From: Candidatus Latescibacterota bacterium
GTDB taxonomy: Bacteria > Latescibacterota > UBA2968 > UBA8231
DNA length: 64,000 bases
Direction of reading: 5' to 3'
Assembly (NCBI GenBank): GCA_965215195.1
Contig: CBDCDC010000001.1
Span: forward strand, 1-64,000
The notes beneath the pieces are model-generated. The model did not search any database, had not been told where the DNA came from, and saw only the letters and a program-made list of their open reading frames with translations. This document shows positions 38,722 through 47,497 of the stretch, piece by piece (position 1 is the first letter of the stretch; the number at the start of each line of letters is the position of its first letter). The translations under genes and the position numbers were made by a program.

Positions 38722-41610
38722 TCAGAAGGCGAACAGATCCTCCAAGCCGAGTTCGACGATCTCGCCCTGCGCGGCTAGGGCCTCAAAGTCCATTTTGCTC
38801 TTGTCGCCCGTGATCGAAATCAGCTTGGGGCGGCCTTGGACGTGCTGGCGGTAGAATTCGAGCACCTCGTCGAGATCGCTGGCTTGGATCTGTGCAAAGC
38901 GCCCAGAGCGCGGGTCGCCGGCTAGCCCCTTGCGCTCCCAGCCGCGCACGGTCTCCAGCACCGAGCGGAACCCGAGGCGTTCAGTGCGGTACTTGTTGAG
39001 CACGGAAAGCTGGGCAGCGGCAAAGCGCTCGGGCGAGGCGGGGATGTCGTCGAGCAGGCCGACGAAGGCCGCAACCGCTTCGGGCGTCTTGTCGGCTTGT
39101 GTGCCCATGCCGCCGACCATGTAGTTGTAGTCGGCTTTGTCGCGGCCATTGAAGTAGAGAGCACCCACCGAGTACGCGAGGGCGCGCGCTTCGCGGATTT
39201 CTTGGAATACAATGCCGGCCATGCCGCCGTAGAAGTAGTCGTTGAACAGCTCGATAGCTGGCTCGAGCGCCGCTTGGTAGGGCACGTCCACGTATTCGAT
39301 CCTCACGAGGGCTTGGGCCATTTCCTTGTCAAAGAAGTAGAGCCGGGTTTTTTCGGGCTGGGTAAACTCCAAGACCTGATAGGGCGGCGGCTCGACGGGC
39401 GATGCCGGCAGCGGGTAGTGCTGGGCGAGGATGGCCTGTACGTCCTCAATGGGTTGCGACCCGGTGTAGCTGAGGGTCTGGCGATAGGAGAGCAAGCCGC
39501 TGAGTAGGTCGATAAGCTCTTGACGCCCCAGGGCGCGAACTTCCTCGTTGGACAACACCCGGCGGTAGTACGCCATGTCGCCCAAGCGGTGGTAGCGGTA
39601 GAGGGCTTCGTGGATGGTGCGGTGGTCCTTGAGCGCGTCGTCGCGCTTGGCGATGATGATGGCCTGAAGCTCGGCGAGCGTGGCGTCGTCCGTGGTCGGG
39701 CCGTGCATGAGCTCGGACAAAAGTGCGAGCGACGCGGCGAAGTTGTCGTCGAGGCCCGAAATGGAAATCGCGGTCTCTTGGTCGCCGACGCTCATCCTAA
39801 AGTTGATGCCCAGCTTGTACCACTCCTTTTTCAGCTCTTCGGAGGTAAAGCGCGGGGTGCCCGACTTGTCGAGCAGTTCGCGGGCCACGGGCAGGCGATT
39901 TTCGCTTAGGGAGCCGATGTCGATCGCGATGGAAAAGTCGAAGAGGTCGTTGAGCGGGTTGCGGGCGTAATAGAGCTTGTTGCCGCCGGCCAGCTCGCGG
40001 GTGGTAAAGTCGCGCTCGGGCACGAGGTAGGCCGGCTCAATCTCGGCAAAGGGCATGGCCATGACCTCGGCGAAAAAGGCCGATTGGCGCGAGGCGTCGA
40101 TGTCGATTTTGTCGATGGGCGGCTTGGCGATCTCGGGTATGTCCTGCTCGCCGTCGCGGCGGTAGCCGGCGACATACGCTCGGTTGAAGTACTTATTGGC
40201 GACTCTGACGATGTCTTGCTTGTCGAGCTCGGCCATGCGGTTGAGGGTCTGCACGGCGTGGGACCATTCTTCAAAGCCCAAGTAGGCATCGCGCATCATG
40301 GCGACTCGGGAGTCGTTGTCCTCCAAGCGCTGCTTCTCGCTCTTTTTGAAGTCGGTGACAATGGCCGGGATGATCCAATCCTCGAATTGCCCCTCCTTAA
40401 TCAGGTCGATCTGCTGCAAGAGCAGGGCTTCGACTTCCTCGAGAGTCTGGTCCTTTTTGGGGATGCCCCACAAGTACTGGGCGCCGTAGTCGTTGAGTAG
40501 ATAGGGGTAGGAGCCGGCTTCGCGCACCTTCTGCTGCTGATTGAGGTTGAGGTTGATCAGCCCGGCTGTGGCGTTGTCGAGGATCATGTCGAGGATCTGC
40601 AGGGCCTCGGCCTCCTCGTGTGTGCGCCGCGCCGTGCGAAAAGCCAAAAGCACGTATTCCTCGCCGGGGTAGCTGACCTCGACCCGTTCCGCCGCTTGGA
40701 TCGCCGGCTCTTTGTACTCGGGGAATGGGGGCAGTTCCCGGTGCTCCCAGAGAGAGAATTCGCGGTCGATAAGCTGGATGGTCGCCTCGATGTCGATGTC
40801 GCCTGAGATGAAAATCGCCATGTTGTTGGGCACGTAATAGGTGTGGTAGAACTCGTACATGCGCTCTAGCGAGGGATTTTTCAGGTGCTCTACTGTGCCC
40901 AGCGTGGTGATGCGATAGGGGTGGACCTTGTAGAACTGTTCCTGCACGGCCTTGCGGATGACGCGGCCTTTGTTGTCGAGGGAGCGGTTTTTTTCCTCAT
41001 AGACGGTTTCCAATTCGGTTTGGAAGAGGCGGAAGACGGGCTCGTGAAAGCGCTCGGCTTCGATCTTGGCCCATTGCGCTAGGCGATTGGCTGGCAGTTC
41101 CACCTTATACACGGTTTCCTCGACCCAAGTGTGGGCGTTGAGGCCGCGCTCGCCCATCGCAGTGTACAGGCGGTCGAGCTCGTTGGGGATGGCATAGGCA
41201 GCGGCGAGTTGGTTTTCGGCGTTGATCTGGGCGTAGATTGCGGCCCTCTTTTCTGGGTCGGTCTCGCCAAAGTGCTGCTCGTAGAGTTCCTCAATGCGGT
41301 CGAGGTGGACCTGCTCCTTTTCGTAGTTGAGAGTGCCGATTTTTTGGCTGCCCTTGAAGAGCATGTGCTCCAGATAGTGGGCAATGCCGGTGGCGTCTTG
41401 GGGGTCGTGCTTGGAACCGGCGCGGACGGCGATTTCGGCGTAGAAGCGCGGCTCTTCCCTGTTTTGAGTCAGATAGACCGTCAGGCCGTTGTCCAACTGG
41501 TAGATGTGGGCCTGCATGGGGTCTTTGGGGTCTGGGCCGTGGAGCAGTTTGTACTCGGCGGGAAGGGCCTCGGCCAAGACGAGAAAGCAAAGGGCGTATA
41601 GGAGGGGCAT
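38722..41610 (-). CDS. M16 family (insulinase-like) zinc protease, probably exported
   Basis: Inverted zincin GIAHYLEHMLFKG, NAHT, two-lobed M16 architecture, short N-terminal signal-like segment. Confidence 0.92.
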   Translation of the reverse strand: MPLLYALCFLVLAEALPAEYKLLHGPDPKDPMQAHIYQLDNGLTVYLTQNREEPRFYAEIAVRAGSKHDPQDATGIAHYLEHMLFKGSQKIGTLNYEKEQVHLDRIEELYEQHFGETDPEKRAAIYAQINAENQLAAAYAIPNELDRLYTAMGERGLNAHTWVEETVYKVELPANRLAQWAKIEAERFHEPVFRLFQTELETVYEEKNRSLDNKGRVIRKAVQEQFYKVHPYRITTLGTVEHLKNPSLERMYEFYHTYYVPNNMAIFISGDIDIEATIQLIDREFSLWEHRELPPFPEYKEPAIQAAERVEVSYPGEEYVLLAFRTARRTHEEAEALQILDMILDNATAGLINLNLNQQQKVREAGSYPYLLNDYGAQYLWGIPKKDQTLEEVEALLLQQIDLIKEGQFEDWIIPAIVTDFKKSEKQRLEDNDSRVAMMRDAYLGFEEWSHAVQTLNRMAELDKQDIVRVANKYFNRAYVAGYRRDGEQDIPEIAKPPIDKIDIDASRQSAFFAEVMAMPFAEIEPAYLVPERDFTTRELAGGNKLYYARNPLNDLFDFSIAIDIGSLSENRLPVARELLDKSGTPRFTSEELKKEWYKLGINFRMSVGDQETAISISGLDDNFAASLALLSELMHGPTTDDATLAELQAIIIAKRDDALKDHRTIHEALYRYHRLGDMAYYRRVLSNEEVRALGRQELIDLLSGLLSYRQTLSYTGSQPIEDVQAILAQHYPLPASPVEPPPYQVLEFTQPEKTRLYFFDKEMAQALVRIEYVDVPYQAALEPAIELFNDYFYGGMAGIVFQEIREARALAYSVGALYFNGRDKADYNYMVGGMGTQADKTPEAVAAFVGLLDDIPASPERFAAAQLSVLNKYRTERLGFRSVLETVRGWERKGLAGDPRSGRFAQIQASDLDEVLEFYRQHVQGRPKLISITGDKSKMDFEALAAQGEIVELGLEDLFAF

Positions 41611-41727
41611 AACCGATCCTCGTTTTAAGGGGTTAGGGAGTGTATTAGGCTCACTTTATTATATTGAACGGAAAATGATGAACTGTGGCAAAGGGCTAGG
41701 GGAGATTCCTAAGTTGCCGCAGCGGTG

Positions 41728-41750
41728 GACGCGCATTATTTTTGCGCGTC
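41728..41750. promoter_or_regulatory. Perfect 8-bp inverted repeat upstream of the TPR gene (operator candidate)
   Basis: GACGCGCA-7 nt-TGCGCGTC, 37 nt before the ATG; GAGGAGG SD follows. Confidence 0.35.
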
Positions 41751-41787
41751 AGAAATATACGAAGCTACTCAGAGAGGAGGTTACTGA

Positions 41788-44535
41788 ATGGGTGCTCTTG
41801 ACCAAGTTAAAAGTTATCAAAGACTCGCCTACTACTACTACGCAAAGGGTGCATACGATCAAGCGATCGTCAATTACACTGAAGTGCTACGGCTCGATCC
41901 TGACCGTGCCTCAGCCTACAACAACCGAGGGGAGGCCTATCGGGGAAAGGGCGAGTATGACCAAGCGATCGCCGACTATGATCAGGCACTTCGGCTCGAT
42001 CCTGACCGTGCCTCAGCCTACAATAACCGAGGACTCGCCTATCAGGGAAAGGGCGAGTATGATCAAGCGATTGCTGACTATGATCAGGCACTTCGGCTCG
42101 ATCCGGGAGATGTCGTAGCCTACAACAACCGAGGGGACGCCTATTGCGAAAAGGGCGAGTATGACCAAGCGATTGCTGACTATGATCAAGCACTTCGGCT
42201 TGATCCTGACCGTGCCGTAGCCTACCACAACCGAGGATTCGCCTATTGCGAAAAGGGCGAGTATGACCAAGCGATTGCTGACTATGATCAAGCACTTCGG
42301 CTCGATCCTGACCGTGCCGTAGCCTACAGCAACCGAGGGGACGCCTATTACGAAAAGGGCGAGTATGACCAAGCGATCGCCGACTATGATCAAGCGCTTC
42401 GGCTTGATCCTGACCGTGCCGTAGCCTACAACAACCGAGGGGACGCCTATTGCGAAAAGGGCGAGTATGACCAAGCGATTGCTGACTATGATCAAGCACT
42501 TCGGCTCGATCCTGACCGTGCCGTAGCCTACTATAACCGAGGGGATGCCTATTGCGAAAAGGGCGAGTATGACCAAGCGATTGCTGACTATGATCAAGTG
42601 CTTCGGCTTGATCCTGACCGTGCCGTAGCCTACAGCAACCGAGGGGATGCCTATTACGTAAAGGGCGAGTATGACCAAGCGATTGCTGACTATGATCAAG
42701 CACTTCGGCTCGATCCTGATAGTGCCGTAGCCTACCACAACCGGGGACTTGCCTATTGCGAAAAGGGCGAGTATGACCAAGCGATTGCTGACTATGATCA
42801 AGCACTTCGGCTCGATCCTGATAGTGCCGTAGCCTACCACAACCGGGGACTTGCCTATTGCGAAAAGGGCGAGTATGACCAAGCGATTGCTGACTATGAT
42901 CAAGCACTTCGGCTTGATCCTGACCGTGCCTCAGCCTACAACAACCGAGGGGAGGCCTATCGGGGAAAGGGCGAGTATGACCAAGCGATCGCCGATTGTA
43001 CTGAAGCACTTCGGCTCGATCCGGGAGATGTCGTAGCCTACAACAACCGAGGGGATGCCTATCGGGGAAAGGGCGAGTATGACCAAGCGATTGCCGACTA
43101 TAATCAAGCACTTCGGCTCGATTCCAGCCTTGCCTTAGCCTACAATAGCCGAGGGGAGGCCTATCGGGGAAAGGGCGAGTATGACCAAGCGATCGCCGAC
43201 TATGATCAAGTGCTTCGGCTCGATCCGGGAGATGCCGTAGCCTACAACAACCGAGGACTCGCCTATTGCGAAAAGGGCGAGTATGACCAAGCGATCGCCA
43301 ATTGTACTGAAGCGCTTCGGATCGATTCCAGCCTTGACTCAGCCTACAGCAACCGAGGACTTGCCTATCACAAAAAGGGCGAGTATGACCAAGCGATTGC
43401 CGACTATGATCAGGCGCTTCGGCTCAATTCCAGCCTTGCCCTAGCCTACAACAACCGAGGGGATGCCTATCACAAAAAGGGCGAATATGATCAAGCGATT
43501 GCCGACTATGATCAGGCGCTTCGGCTCAATTCCAGCTTTGCCTTAGCCTACAATAACCGAGGACTCGCCTATTACGAAAAGAGCGACTATGATCAAGCGA
43601 TCACCGACTACGATCAAGCGCTTCGGATCGATTCCAGCCTTGCCGTAGCCTACAATAACCGAGGACTTGCCTATCACAAAAAGGGCGAGTATGATCAAGC
43701 GATTGCCGACTATGATCAAGCACTTCGGCTCAATTCCAGCCTTGCCTTAGCCTACAACAACCGAGGACTCGCCTATTACGTAAAGGGCGAGTATGATCGA
43801 GCGATCGCCAATTGTACTGAAGCACTTCGGCTCGATCCTGACCTTGCCTTAGCCTACAACAACCGAGGACTCGCTTATTGTGCAAAGGGCGAGTATGATC
43901 AAACGATCACCGATTGTACTGAAGCACTTCGGCTCGATCCTGACCTTGCCTTAGCCTACAACAACCGAGGACTCGCCTATTGTGCAAAGGACGAGTATGA
44001 TCAAACGATCACCGATTGTACTGAAGCACTTCGGCTCGATTCCAGCCTTGACTCAGCCTACAATAACCGAGGGCTTGCCTATCACGTAAAGGGCGAGTAT
44101 GACCGGGCTATCGAAGACTACGACAACGCCGTCAGATTTAAGCCTGACCATGCTACAATTTGTCTCAACAGGGGTGTCCTCTACCACGATCTAATAGATA
44201 ATTTAACAGACGCATATGACCGGGCTATTGAAGACTACGACAACGCCGTCAGGCTCTGCCCTAATTATGAGACCGACTTCATGGATCGTAACTTCGCATA
44301 CGGAGGCCAGGATTCGGTTGACAGGGCTATCGAACTATTGGAGAGCAAAATTGGGGATATCTATAACCCTGAAAGTGATGCCGACTACTACTACTTAGGA
44401 GTAGAATCACTATTCAGGAACGACCGGCTTACCGCCCAGAGGTGTTTCGAGTGGGCGGAGGAGCTAGGTTATGACGATGGGGCTAACGGGGTCAAGCTCG
44501 CAAAGCATCTTGAGAACTTGACGAATCCGGAATAG
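41788..44535 (+). CDS. TPR-solenoid protein with ~22 highly conserved 34-aa repeats plus degenerate caps
   Basis: Consensus AxAYxNRGxAYxxKGEYDQAIADYDQALRLDPxx; strong SD; no signal peptide or catalytic domain seen. Confidence 0.95.
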   Translation: MGALDQVKSYQRLAYYYYAKGAYDQAIVNYTEVLRLDPDRASAYNNRGEAYRGKGEYDQAIADYDQALRLDPDRASAYNNRGLAYQGKGEYDQAIADYDQALRLDPGDVVAYNNRGDAYCEKGEYDQAIADYDQALRLDPDRAVAYHNRGFAYCEKGEYDQAIADYDQALRLDPDRAVAYSNRGDAYYEKGEYDQAIADYDQALRLDPDRAVAYNNRGDAYCEKGEYDQAIADYDQALRLDPDRAVAYYNRGDAYCEKGEYDQAIADYDQVLRLDPDRAVAYSNRGDAYYVKGEYDQAIADYDQALRLDPDSAVAYHNRGLAYCEKGEYDQAIADYDQALRLDPDSAVAYHNRGLAYCEKGEYDQAIADYDQALRLDPDRASAYNNRGEAYRGKGEYDQAIADCTEALRLDPGDVVAYNNRGDAYRGKGEYDQAIADYNQALRLDSSLALAYNSRGEAYRGKGEYDQAIADYDQVLRLDPGDAVAYNNRGLAYCEKGEYDQAIANCTEALRIDSSLDSAYSNRGLAYHKKGEYDQAIADYDQALRLNSSLALAYNNRGDAYHKKGEYDQAIADYDQALRLNSSFALAYNNRGLAYYEKSDYDQAITDYDQALRIDSSLAVAYNNRGLAYHKKGEYDQAIADYDQALRLNSSLALAYNNRGLAYYVKGEYDRAIANCTEALRLDPDLALAYNNRGLAYCAKGEYDQTITDCTEALRLDPDLALAYNNRGLAYCAKDEYDQTITDCTEALRLDSSLDSAYNNRGLAYHVKGEYDRAIEDYDNAVRFKPDHATICLNRGVLYHDLIDNLTDAYDRAIEDYDNAVRLCPNYETDFMDRNFAYGGQDSVDRAIELLESKIGDIYNPESDADYYYLGVESLFRNDRLTAQRCFEWAEELGYDDGANGVKLAKHLENLTNPE
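41850..44140 (+). repeat. Tandem array of 102-bp near-identical coding repeats (boundaries approximate)
   Basis: Recurrent AAGGGCGAGTATGAYCAAGCGATYGCYGACTATGATCARGCACTTCGGCTYGAT with 102-bp period. Confidence 0.97.
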
Positions 44536-44611
44536 CGGGCCGAAAATTCCGTTCTCGCGGCCCGTATTATCCGGCGCATTGGGACAGGCACATAAGGCGT
44601 TACGGCAGGAG

Positions 44612-46504
44612 TTAGCGGCGGGATGGCGGGCTTTGTATTCTCTGACGCAATTCCAAGGTTCTCTTGTAGCTCTCATCGGCAACAATGATGAGCATTGCCT
44701 TAGCCCGGCTCATGCCGGTATAGAGCATTTTTCGTAGATGTTTCTCGCGCGGTAGGGTGACATCTCCTCCTATAGTAACCGTTTGGCCGTCGGTTACAGG
44801 AATAACCAGAATAGCCACTTCGCTTTCCAAGCCTTGGAAGTCATACACATCGCTGTACCTGAGTATGTTGTTTGGAGAGGTATCTTTGGGAATCAGAACG
44901 TCTTCTTGGTCCCTGAAGGTTGCTCCTTCTGCCTCGCGTATATTTAATAGTTTCCAGCCACCATAGCTGCCGGCAGCATCAAACCCATCGTCGTCGCTGG
45001 ACAGTAGGATAAGCTGCCAAGAGCGGAACTCTCTCTCTTTGAGGTCGCTGACTAGGCGGTCTAACAGCTTCCGCAGGTCTTCCCCAGGTCCGAAGTATTC
45101 AATTTGAACGTCTGGCCCATGCACGCCGGAGATTGGGGGCGATTCAATATCGGTTAATTCGGCAACTTTCTTCGCTATCTGATGGGTATTCCGACAGTTA
45201 TTTCTCAACGTAATGCTAGGCAAGTCGCGGCTCTTGATAAAGTCTTTCAGTGCGTCTCTGCCGTCGTTGATGCGCTGATGGGAGACGATATCTTGATTAG
45301 TGAAATCGCCGAACATGGTAAAGCGTCCGGTGGTCAACCCACCTTTCAACAGCGCGTCCATCAACTTCAGAAATATCTCGTCGCACAGATTCTGGGCCTC
45401 ATCGACAACTAGATAATCGAAGATGATCCCTTGTCCCAAGTCTTTGACTGTCTCATCTACGAATGAAGACCATTTATCATCTAAGTAGCCGAATGTTAGC
45501 GATTTTTCGAGTTCGGGAGAATTGGCCAGTCTCTGCTGGTGCCTGTCCAAGGAGGCACTGTCCTCTCTGAATATCCAGGATGGCAGGGTCGCGGGCGTAC
45601 CCGCCACGATCTCGCCGCTGTTGTCGGCGGAAAGCTCCTTGGCCCATCGCTCAAAACGATGGCTTAGGTTAGGGTTGCTGCACAGCAGGGCGACGGTCTC
45701 GCCGGCCTCGCAGCGGCGTTTGGCGAGTTCCATGGCGAGAACGGTCTTACCCGTACCTGCCGCGCCGTTAATGGCGCAACGAGGGTTTTCTTCCGCTATA
45801 TCTAGGCTATTGATTTGATCGGCTGTCAGGCGCAACAACTGCGGGCGACGGGTCTCCAATTCAGAGCGGAATATCGTTTTCGGGTCTTCCGGTCCTATTT
45901 CCATATCAGGCTCCAAGTCATTTCGCAGTTTGTTCAAATCTATCTGTGCAAGTTGAAAGGACCAATCCTCGCTAAGAGCGTTGCTTACCTTTTTCCGGCG
46001 CATTTGGTCGGCACGATCTTTCAATATTCTGACGAGTTTATCGGGGTTCCGGGCGTTGCGGGAACCTATCGACAACGCTAGGTGTGAAGAAGTGGCAGCA
46101 TTGGAAATTTTCCCATCCGTGAACGCCACGGCACAGTCAAGCGAAAGCAGGGATTTTTCACGAAAATGGGTACGCTCAAATTGTTTTTTTAGAGCGAACA
46201 TAGCATCTTTGGACTGGTCGAGAGGAGAACGTAACGATTCGTCGGTGGATTTCTTGTACCACTGTCCCTTCCTTGTTTCGTAATGACCGCCTTTCACTTC
46301 TAAGCAGATAACTGAGCAGTACTCGGGGATGAGGATGACGAAATCAATCTCGCGAGGTCTTGTGCTATGGCTGGGATTTTCCACGTATTTTGAGTAAAAT
46401 ACCTCCCAATCTCTGGCTTGGGCAGCCTTTTTAAGATTATTGAATATGATTCTTTCCGACTCTGGGGCGTCTTCAGGAATTACATCGGGAATCATTATGG
46501 CCAT
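44612..46504 (-). CDS. NERD nuclease domain fused to an SF1 helicase
   Basis: NERD EIDFVILIP..CLEVKGG; Walker A GAAGTGKT; Walker B LVVDEAQ; NCRNT; FQGLES; LYTGMSRA; AGAGGA SD before ATG 46504; lower GC. Confidence 0.9.
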   Translation of the reverse strand: MAIMIPDVIPEDAPESERIIFNNLKKAAQARDWEVFYSKYVENPSHSTRPREIDFVILIPEYCSVICLEVKGGHYETRKGQWYKKSTDESLRSPLDQSKDAMFALKKQFERTHFREKSLLSLDCAVAFTDGKISNAATSSHLALSIGSRNARNPDKLVRILKDRADQMRRKKVSNALSEDWSFQLAQIDLNKLRNDLEPDMEIGPEDPKTIFRSELETRRPQLLRLTADQINSLDIAEENPRCAINGAAGTGKTVLAMELAKRRCEAGETVALLCSNPNLSHRFERWAKELSADNSGEIVAGTPATLPSWIFREDSASLDRHQQRLANSPELEKSLTFGYLDDKWSSFVDETVKDLGQGIIFDYLVVDEAQNLCDEIFLKLMDALLKGGLTTGRFTMFGDFTNQDIVSHQRINDGRDALKDFIKSRDLPSITLRNNCRNTHQIAKKVAELTDIESPPISGVHGPDVQIEYFGPGEDLRKLLDRLVSDLKEREFRSWQLILLSSDDDGFDAAGSYGGWKLLNIREAEGATFRDQEDVLIPKDTSPNNILRYSDVYDFQGLESEVAILVIPVTDGQTVTIGGDVTLPREKHLRKMLYTGMSRAKAMLIIVADESYKRTLELRQRIQSPPSRR

Positions 46505-46819
46505 ATCGCAACTTCCTCTTTTACTAAAAAATGCTTTAGAACTCTTAAAAACCACTCTATTTGCTCTCTTGTCAACCTCCGTACAGGGCCGCTTGTCGGG
46601 GCTTTGTAATGATGGCCGAGACGTACCAACTGTATCAACCGGGACGATGTGGGCCAAATTAAGCGTGGTATCGGAGGGGAGGAATGGGCCAGGTGAGCAA
46701 GCCGTTATTTTCGGAACCGCGCCAGATGCAAAGAGCACGGGCGTTGGTTTGGCACGATTTTTTCTGTGTTGTACACAACGCAGCGCAGCGCGCCCATGGC
46801 GTGACCCCGGAGGGACAGA

Positions 46820-47497
46820 ATGGGCAAAATGGAAACACTACAGACGTGGGGCCGCGCCCTGTTGGACTTTGCCTATCCGCCGCACTGCGCGGTGTGCGAA
46901 GCGGACATCGAAGCCGCCGACCTGCTGTGTGGGTCGTGCTGGGCGGAGATTGCGCCGGACCGCTCGCGTCCCCAAGCCGAGGACGGAGGAAGTCCGTTTG
47001 AAAAGGTCGTCGCCTTGGGGCCGTTCACCGGTGCGCTGCAACAGGCCATTTACGCGCTTAAATTTCGCAACCAAGTGCGGCTAGGGCGGGCACTGGGCGA
47101 GCGCATGGGGCAGTGCTTGGCCGAGCAACTTGCTCCGCTGGATTGCTTGTTACCCGTGCCCTTGCACCCGGCGCGGCTGCGGGAGCGCGGGTACAACCAG
47201 AGCGCGGAAATCGCCGCCGGGTTGGGGGCCGCGCTCGGCGTCCCTGTGTGCGATAGAGTCGTGCGGCGGCGGAGAAATACTCGACAGCAAGCCCTGTTGT
47301 CGGCCGAGGAACGCCGCGCCAATCTCCGCGGTGCCTTTGCGCTCACGGCCGCGCCGCCCGCAGGCACTCGGATCGGAATAGTAGATGACGTGTGGACGAC
47401 CGGAGAGACCATGGTCGCCTGTGCCCAAGCCGTGAGGGGCGACCGCCTGTGGGCCGTTGTCTTGGCGCGCTCGGGGCCGGGCGATCTATTGACCTAA
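46820..47497 (+). CDS. ComF family protein (Zn ribbon + phosphoribosyltransferase)
   Basis: CAVC..LCGSC, PVPLH..RERGYNQ, IVDDVWTTGET. Confidence 0.92.
   Translation: MGKMETLQTWGRALLDFAYPPHCAVCEADIEAADLLCGSCWAEIAPDRSRPQAEDGGSPFEKVVALGPFTGALQQAIYALKFRNQVRLGRALGERMGQCLAEQLAPLDCLLPVPLHPARLRERGYNQSAEIAAGLGAALGVPVCDRVVRRRRNTRQQALLSAEERRANLRGAFALTAAPPAGTRIGIVDDVWTTGETMVACAQAVRGDRLWAVVLARSGPGDLLT

Follow-up and report, generated by a model that had tools for sequence, protein, structure and literature searches.

A recombining TPR repeat protein encoded tail to tail with a NERD nuclease-helicase: a putative sensor-effector pair in Candidatus Latescibacterota

The role of NERD nucleases in defence is established. 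In Nhi (10.1101/776245) and in the UG34 reverse transcriptase-associated NERD-helicase (PMC9226505), nuclease and helicase are carried on one polypeptide, and Nhi is described as acting alone. The TPR-like sensors of Avs proteins, of the STAND type, bind phage proteins, and this binding is proposed to switch on a nuclease (PMC13581612). Type I-G Tiamat has variable TPR-like folds, a GHKL ATPase, a nuclease and an SH3 barrel as the dock, and its C-terminal domain is predicted to recruit the neighbouring NERD-SF1 helicase (10.64898/2026.09.30.754977). TOTE and the PADLOC system PDC-M16 are defined as TPR, OB, TBP and effector (PMC12458937). Fungal NLR proteins contain TPRs of high internal conservation, with conserved units, repeat-number variation, shuffling and concave-face variation (PMC4986451).

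We analysed a window of 64,000 nt from a Candidatus Latescibacterota genome, in which a long TPR gene converges on a gene for a nuclease-helicase (Table 1). The TPR protein ends in a conserved helical cap, and we refer to it as the TPR-cap protein. Its partner resembles Nhi and the UG34 enzyme in architecture; however, the helicase clade linked to TPR-cap keeps this partner, and no reverse transcriptase gene was seen beside it. Unlike Tiamat, the TPR-cap protein consists of a TPR solenoid and a helical cap alone, its repeats are homogenised and recombine, and its gene converges on that of the helicase; it contained none of the GHKL ATPase, PD-(D/E)xK nuclease and SH3 barrel of that partner. 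TOTE and PDC-M16 likewise place a TPR protein beside a nuclease-helicase, whereas the all-helical cap and two-gene insert found here include no OB/cold-shock domain or TBP gene. The only PDC-M16A match had an E value of 0.009, and the TPR protein gave no PDC-M16 match. In contrast to the fungal NLRs, the TPR-cap protein has no NACHT/NB-ARC domain or fused effector, the effector being a separate gene. It differs from Avs in having no STAND NTPase, in its two convergent genes and in its young, recombining sensor array. No description of the TPR-cap and NERD-helicase pair was found in the literature outside subscription papers and supplements, and the pair is likely an anti-phage sensor and effector missing from current catalogues, with a recognition surface that reshuffles itself.

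Table 1 Features of the locus and its flanks.
Feature	Position in window	Strand	Description and basis
M16 peptidase gene, one flank of insert	38722-41610	-	Pfam
Two-gene insert	41690..46730 (limits approximate)	.	~5 kb, 51.5% GC vs 60-61% in flanks
TPR-cap gene	41788..44535	+	ORF, 915 aa; TPR solenoid and conserved C-terminal cap; Pfam TPR_1 E 1.8e-245; family alignment
22 homogenised 102-bp TPR units, recombining cassettes	41908..44151	+	Repeat and unit analysis
Conserved ~100-aa all-helical cap	44233..44532	+	End of last TPR and four further helices; conservation in family alignment
Cap residues 858-892, predicted helicase contact	44359..44463	+	Predicted complex
Gap between converging stop codons	44536..44611	.	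76 nt; -24 to 356 nt in 22 other loci
NERD nuclease-SF1 helicase	44612..46504	-	630 aa from ATG common to homologues; Pfam, motifs, fold
Helicase C-terminal helix (residues 615-629), predicted docking site for cap	44618..44662	-	Predicted complex
ComF-like gene, other flank of insert	46820-47497	+	Double zinc ribbon match; presumed label

The array consists of 34-aa helical repeats that match TPR profiles, as in a TPR solenoid, and is flanked by one diverged TPR on the N-terminal and one on the C-terminal side. Analysis with TRF gave a period of 102 and 21.7 copies at 41890-44104. The first-pass annotation had reported about 22 units of 102 bp that were nearly identical as DNA. There are indeed 22 units, spaced exactly 34 aa; however, all are distinct as DNA and as protein, and their mean pairwise identity of 82% for DNA (range 61-98%) and 74% for protein describes homogenised rather than near-identical repeats. 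Adjacent units were closer in sequence than distant ones (Mantel rho 0.38, p = 0.0002). In 29 of 190 three-unit comparisons, identity reached the threshold for high internal conservation, 85% over 100 aa, and the best value was 94%. Shuffling and repeat-number polymorphism, which are also described for such repeats (PMC4986451), were both found.

The variable positions and residue sets named in the first-pass annotation were recovered: S/V/L at position 2, N/H/S/Y at position 5, E/L/D/F at position 9, YDQ/CTE at positions 24-26, and the pairs RG, QG, CE, YE, YV, HK, CA and HV at positions 12-13. The gradient that it had seen in the linkers is real, with PDRAV in five of the first 10 and none of the last 11, five of which carry SSLAL or PDLAL. 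Small cassettes recur in varied combinations, as had been proposed. Each recurring di-residue at positions 12-13 is written with identical codons, and the cassettes are therefore copies. A Pfam search over all 915 aa returned TPR-type matches only, with no NACHT/NB-ARC NTPase, and no hydrophobic or signal-like stretch was present at the N-terminus, in agreement with the earlier statement that signal peptide and enzyme domain are lacking.

We applied the four-gamete test to units 1-21 (unit 22 was left out), using 29 informative sites and 406 site pairs. The test was failed by 204 pairs, and incompatibility climbed with distance: it affected 7% of pairs 1-3 nt apart and 58% of those separated by more than 10 nt (permutation p = 0.0002). 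Thus, the units exchange short cassettes, and the recombination between units postulated earlier is supported by this pattern and by the read contigs described below.

Selection was evaluated at positions 2, 5, 6, 9, 12 and 13, taken as the groove following the TPR literature. Amino-acid changes were enriched there (18 over 14.4 sites) relative to outer positions (7 over 19.5 sites; p = 0.003), and the outer face was under purifying selection while the groove varied. Groove dN/dS in the 915-aa gene was 1.4-1.5, not significantly above 1 (p = 0.08-0.11). Among family arrays, groove dN/dS was significantly above 1 in 2 of 11 (p = 0.015 and 1e-7; pooled p = 0.051), versus none of 11 unrelated TPR arrays of relatives, by a method that is crude and disturbed by recombination. 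These comparisons suggest diversifying selection on the groove of TPR-cap arrays. The unrelated arrays vary at the same positions as the TPR-cap array, and the position pattern is therefore generic. The homogenised TPR arrays of relatives that served only as controls (L020, L021 and L029-L033) stand behind N-termini that were labelled by eye as membrane, TIR-like or nucleoside-hydrolase-like.

Variation between samples was studied in short-read contigs from X1-X4, a single study that possibly includes the source sample. With k assumed to be 31, a clonal copy of the region is expected to yield 73 pieces. X1, X3 and X4 gave 266, 157 and 105 pieces, of which 71, 40 and 23, respectively, were under 99% identical; these counts are inflated by errors or library chimeras, and the contigs report unit content, not unit order. 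Among the variant bases listed inside units, 31 of 33 were alleles already found in other units. A single unbranched piece of 1,791 nt in X1 covered the cap together with most of the helicase, with zero differences. The short-read contigs thus revealed non-reference unit combinations beside an unbranched cap and helicase. One contig of X6, from another study, runs from unit-18/19-like sequence straight into the last TPR and lacks the 423 nt in between. The array recombines; its length changes from relative to relative, and samples differ in its unit make-up. Contig depth in X1 was 118 for the unit-17 piece and 389 for the cap, values that we do not take as allele shares. An assembly artefact was considered and rejected for unit content, as all units are distinct and several unique pieces have exact matches among the read contigs. 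A second allele of the N-terminal part of the helicase, with 22 differences at 46015-46308 of the window, was seen in runs X1 and X2.

The first-pass annotation overlooked both the conserved cap and the adjoining partner gene. The cap alone had no NCBIfam match, and it forms a discrete family, with 78 of 150 listed representatives scoring at least 51 bits and the next at most 37. In fold searches, the matches of the cap model to TPR proteins were confined to residues 1-123, and an ESM Atlas search returned generic TPR clusters. A cap is joined to anything between 1 and about 28 TPR units. The consensus differs from one long array to the next, and homologous arrays use other residue sets and irregular unit lengths. 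Three proteins (P0036, P0064 and P0076) start with an N-terminal domain, about 330 aa long and without annotation, to which a few TPRs and the cap are fused. P0002, a TPR protein of 1,382 aa, has an internal and a terminal cap and probably represents two fused TPR-cap genes. None of five candidate caps in viral contigs was confirmed.

In the partner enzyme, the PD-(D/E)xK-type residues E17, D54, E69 and K71 and the helicase motifs are intact, as expected of a NERD-SF1 protein, and the closest folds to its model are SLFN11, UvrD and Upf1. It matched the PADLOC profiles RTasNERD-Hel (E 1.7e-32) and Nhi (E 4.7e-12; partial, 125 aa only), and also AbiO profiles. Across 19 homologues, the helicase motifs are invariant, whereas the nuclease motif is degenerate in six (L038, L041, L044, L046, L049 and L050). 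At 6 of 19 loci, genes for restriction-modification or Dnd are found within 6 kb, a raw count without a background rate, based on five loci found by scan and one by DNA similarity after scanning 111 of 136 neighbour ORFs. A lone nuclease was found at two loci and IS elements at three, and a defence neighbour was absent from the window's own locus and from about half of the 19 others.

The insert contains only the two genes, and its flanks directly adjoin in 17 of 24 same-genus genomes. In genome G020, this slot is occupied by a diverged pair, with 56% identity in the helicase and 85-92% in the flanks. All that remains in the slot of G143 (L196:6133-6800) is the final TPR, its cap broken, and the last ~75 helicase codons, tail to tail; the rest is deleted. 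No paralogue of the insert or of the helicase was found in its own genome. Promoter and terminator scans gave matches at chance level only, and an alignment revealed no clear target-site duplication (two of nine rows, L005 and L013, were misplaced and ignored). Elsewhere in the window, clusters for Na+-NQR, F-type ATP synthase and NiFe-hydrogenase/Hyp at 11620-37845 form an ordinary housekeeping context.

One scan yielded 58 helicase relatives, 19 close (41-61% identical) and 39 distant. The close relatives come from records named Latescibacterota, Poribacteria, Dehalococcoidia and Binatia, and one from an unstated group. A convergent adjoining TPR-cap gene was present at 18 of the 19 close relatives (15 of 16 when the three that are the query's own seed sequences are omitted) and at none of the 39 distant ones, some of which have short flanks. 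It was also absent from 23 metagenome loci among the matches listed, all with distant helicases. In the phylum of the window, the cap occurred in 5 of 168 genomes, always beside the helicase or its remnant, and all four full clade helicases have a cap. In Poribacteria, 23 of 176 genomes carry the cap: 16 beside the helicase, five alone with no helicase found in the genome, one at a contig end and one broken. The helicase was found in 18 of the 176, 16 beside the cap, the other two being a gene halved by the end of its contig and a homologue that is only distant; these counts include kin that are not independent, and many copies share one slot. The sampled Dehalococcoidia-class genomes had a cap in 1 of 401, which is the seed itself. 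In 11 plasmid records, every match was below 30% identity. No fused helicase-TPR form was detected among 7,984 long candidates, which is weak evidence.

The tail-to-tail pairing is kept across four groups and many insertion sites, and 2-5 TPR-cap genes adjoin a single helicase at L041, L051, L179 and L180. Helicase and cap trees correlate without following host phylum (Mantel rho 0.73, 20 pairs; L179, L183 and L195 were dropped by the motif filter, and L045 and L047 were left out). The TPR gene travels with the helicase as one mobile two-gene unit. The tree congruence indicates joint transfer, not binding, because physical linkage alone would give it. Losses are asymmetric: five genomes have TPR-cap with no helicase found, versus one clear intact helicase, that of L047, with no cap anywhere in the genome. 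At L047:8292-9284, a convergent SDH/ClpP-like protease gene occupies the place of the TPR-cap gene. The five solo TPR-cap genes (L182, L184, L185, L186 and L189) share a Poribacteria hotspot between nickel-dependent epimerase and HAD/QueC-like genes, and in three of them WD40 genes or a PemK toxin replace the helicase. L195 carries two tandem cassettes, the second helicase of which is interrupted by a transposase. In a more distant Chloroflexota clade (L053-L058 and L061), NERD and helicase are encoded by two adjacent genes with no TPR partner.

We predicted a complex of the helicase with the last two TPRs and the cap, in three runs with three controls, using our own alignments. The runs scored 0.71, 0.71 and 0.70 versus 0.00 for the best of the three controls, shared at least 83% of contacts and had a partner pLDDT of at least 80. 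In the calibration of this score, 116 of 157 solved pairs and 2 of 215 mismatched ones came up to the mark, counts that apply only roughly to our own alignments; in the prediction tool's own test, 7 of 44 blind neighbours passed. In the model, the cap grips the last helicase helix and the array stays free. A C-terminal tail held by TPR-like helices is textbook geometry, and the score may be due in part to likeness to solved structures. In 6 of 19 homologues, the helicase has a short tail and part of the predicted interface is lost. The prediction supports binding of cap and helicase without demonstrating it. The first-pass annotation had inferred a cytoplasmic protein in need of a partner, and co-occurrence and predicted complex point to the adjacent NERD-helicase as the most likely one.

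We propose, with a probability of roughly 50%, that the locus is a two-gene anti-phage module in which the TPR-cap protein is a putative diversifying sensor docked on a nuclease-helicase effector. The cap would dock on the C-terminal helix of the helicase, and the TPR-cap protein would restrain the enzyme at rest. An invader protein could then bind along the acidic, Asn-lined groove and release or reposition the helicase, and the freed enzyme would unwind and cut DNA. Unit recombination and extra TPR-cap genes per helicase would widen the range of triggers. The TPR-cap protein is probably a guard of the nuclease-helicase, because solo caps are common and solo helicases rare. However, the intact L047 helicase counts against a strict inhibitor role, and the module reading is weakened by the 5 of 23 cap-bearing Poribacteria genomes without the helicase and by the convergent, non-operonic arrangement.

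More tentatively, the pair might be a split NLR-like immune receptor, in which interchangeable TPR sensors, their grooves diversified by continuing recombination inside a population, share one conserved cap and one nuclease-helicase. The system would be exchanged between phyla that inhabit the same animals and could grow to several sensors for each effector. Such a receptor would constitute a re-programmable protein-recognition repertoire. The results assign an anonymous repeat protein to a small two-gene system with a marker domain, and they suggest that phage sensors may be found among the symbiont TPR proteins that are commonly classed as host-interaction factors. Should the cap prove to be a universal dock, the naturally occurring arrays, 1-28 units long, would offer a direct way to ask how repeat shuffling alters specificity in bacteria, a relationship so far best documented in fungal NLRs.

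The first-pass annotation favoured a TALE/PPR-like per-repeat code. In such a reader, every repeat would recognise a single base or residue along a linear ligand, and the helicase would be targeted to it. The exact 34-aa periodicity, the recurring di-residues and the 17 distinct groove combinations among 21 units fit such a reader. Nevertheless, we consider it very improbable and did not retain the nucleic-acid code: the protein has a pI of 4.4 and a net charge of -74, the groove contains 7 K+R versus 19 D+E, the same positions vary in unrelated arrays, homologues differ in residue sets and unit lengths, and positive selection was not significant. Asn ladders bind the peptide backbone, and Asn occupies position 6 in 21 of 22 units. 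From this ladder, the low pI and the net charge, a protein ligand appears more likely than a nucleic acid. A further possibility is a recruiter for DNA processing or repair. Here the TPR array would attach to a protein of the host or of an element and deliver the helicase to DNA, serving as a restriction or mobile-element accessory rather than a phage sensor. The invariant helicase motifs, with the nuclease motif lost in six homologues, five of which adjoin restriction genes or a Uma2 nuclease (mostly one clade), are in line with this; however, a fixed host target would need no recombining groove, and patchy presence and decay fit conflict genes. We regard a recruiter as quite unlikely.

A minority possibility is an addiction or toxin-antitoxin-like cassette without sensing, with the helicase as toxin, the cap alone as antitoxin and an array that turns over neutrally by unequal crossover. 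The predicted contact involves only the cap, some cap proteins are near-minimal with just 1-2 TPRs, TPR-cap genes occur solo, intact caps are found next to broken helicases, and a groove dN/dS near 1 is compatible with relaxed selection. Against this reading, the outer face is under purifying selection while the groove varies, and dN/dS exceeds 1 in two family arrays; long arrays and stacked TPR-cap genes are hard to fit with a pure antitoxin, and the L047 helicase lacks a cap. It is also conceivable, although rather unlikely, that the TPR gene encodes a eukaryote-like repeat protein of sponge symbionts that interacts with the host, the helicase being carried along as a passenger of this mobile segment. 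Homogenised arrays that we take to be LRR-, ankyrin- and Sel1-like abound in the genome, the carriers Poribacteria, Latescibacterota, Dehalococcoidia and Binatia are presumably sponge symbionts, judging from taxa alone, and five TPR-cap genes are solo. Eukaryote-like repeat proteins of symbionts can reportedly alter sponge phagocytosis (PMC13747020). This role is difficult to reconcile with a protein without a signal-like N-terminus, with tail-to-tail pairing that persists in four groups and many insertion sites, and with the congruent trees and predicted complex.

As minor observations on repeats elsewhere, C1 and C2 of G000 carry many homogenised coding arrays with periods of 66, 72, 99, 108 and 129-135 nt. 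G000 also contains several CRISPR-like arrays, located on C2 at about 198-200 kb, 949-953 kb and 4,550-4,553 kb.
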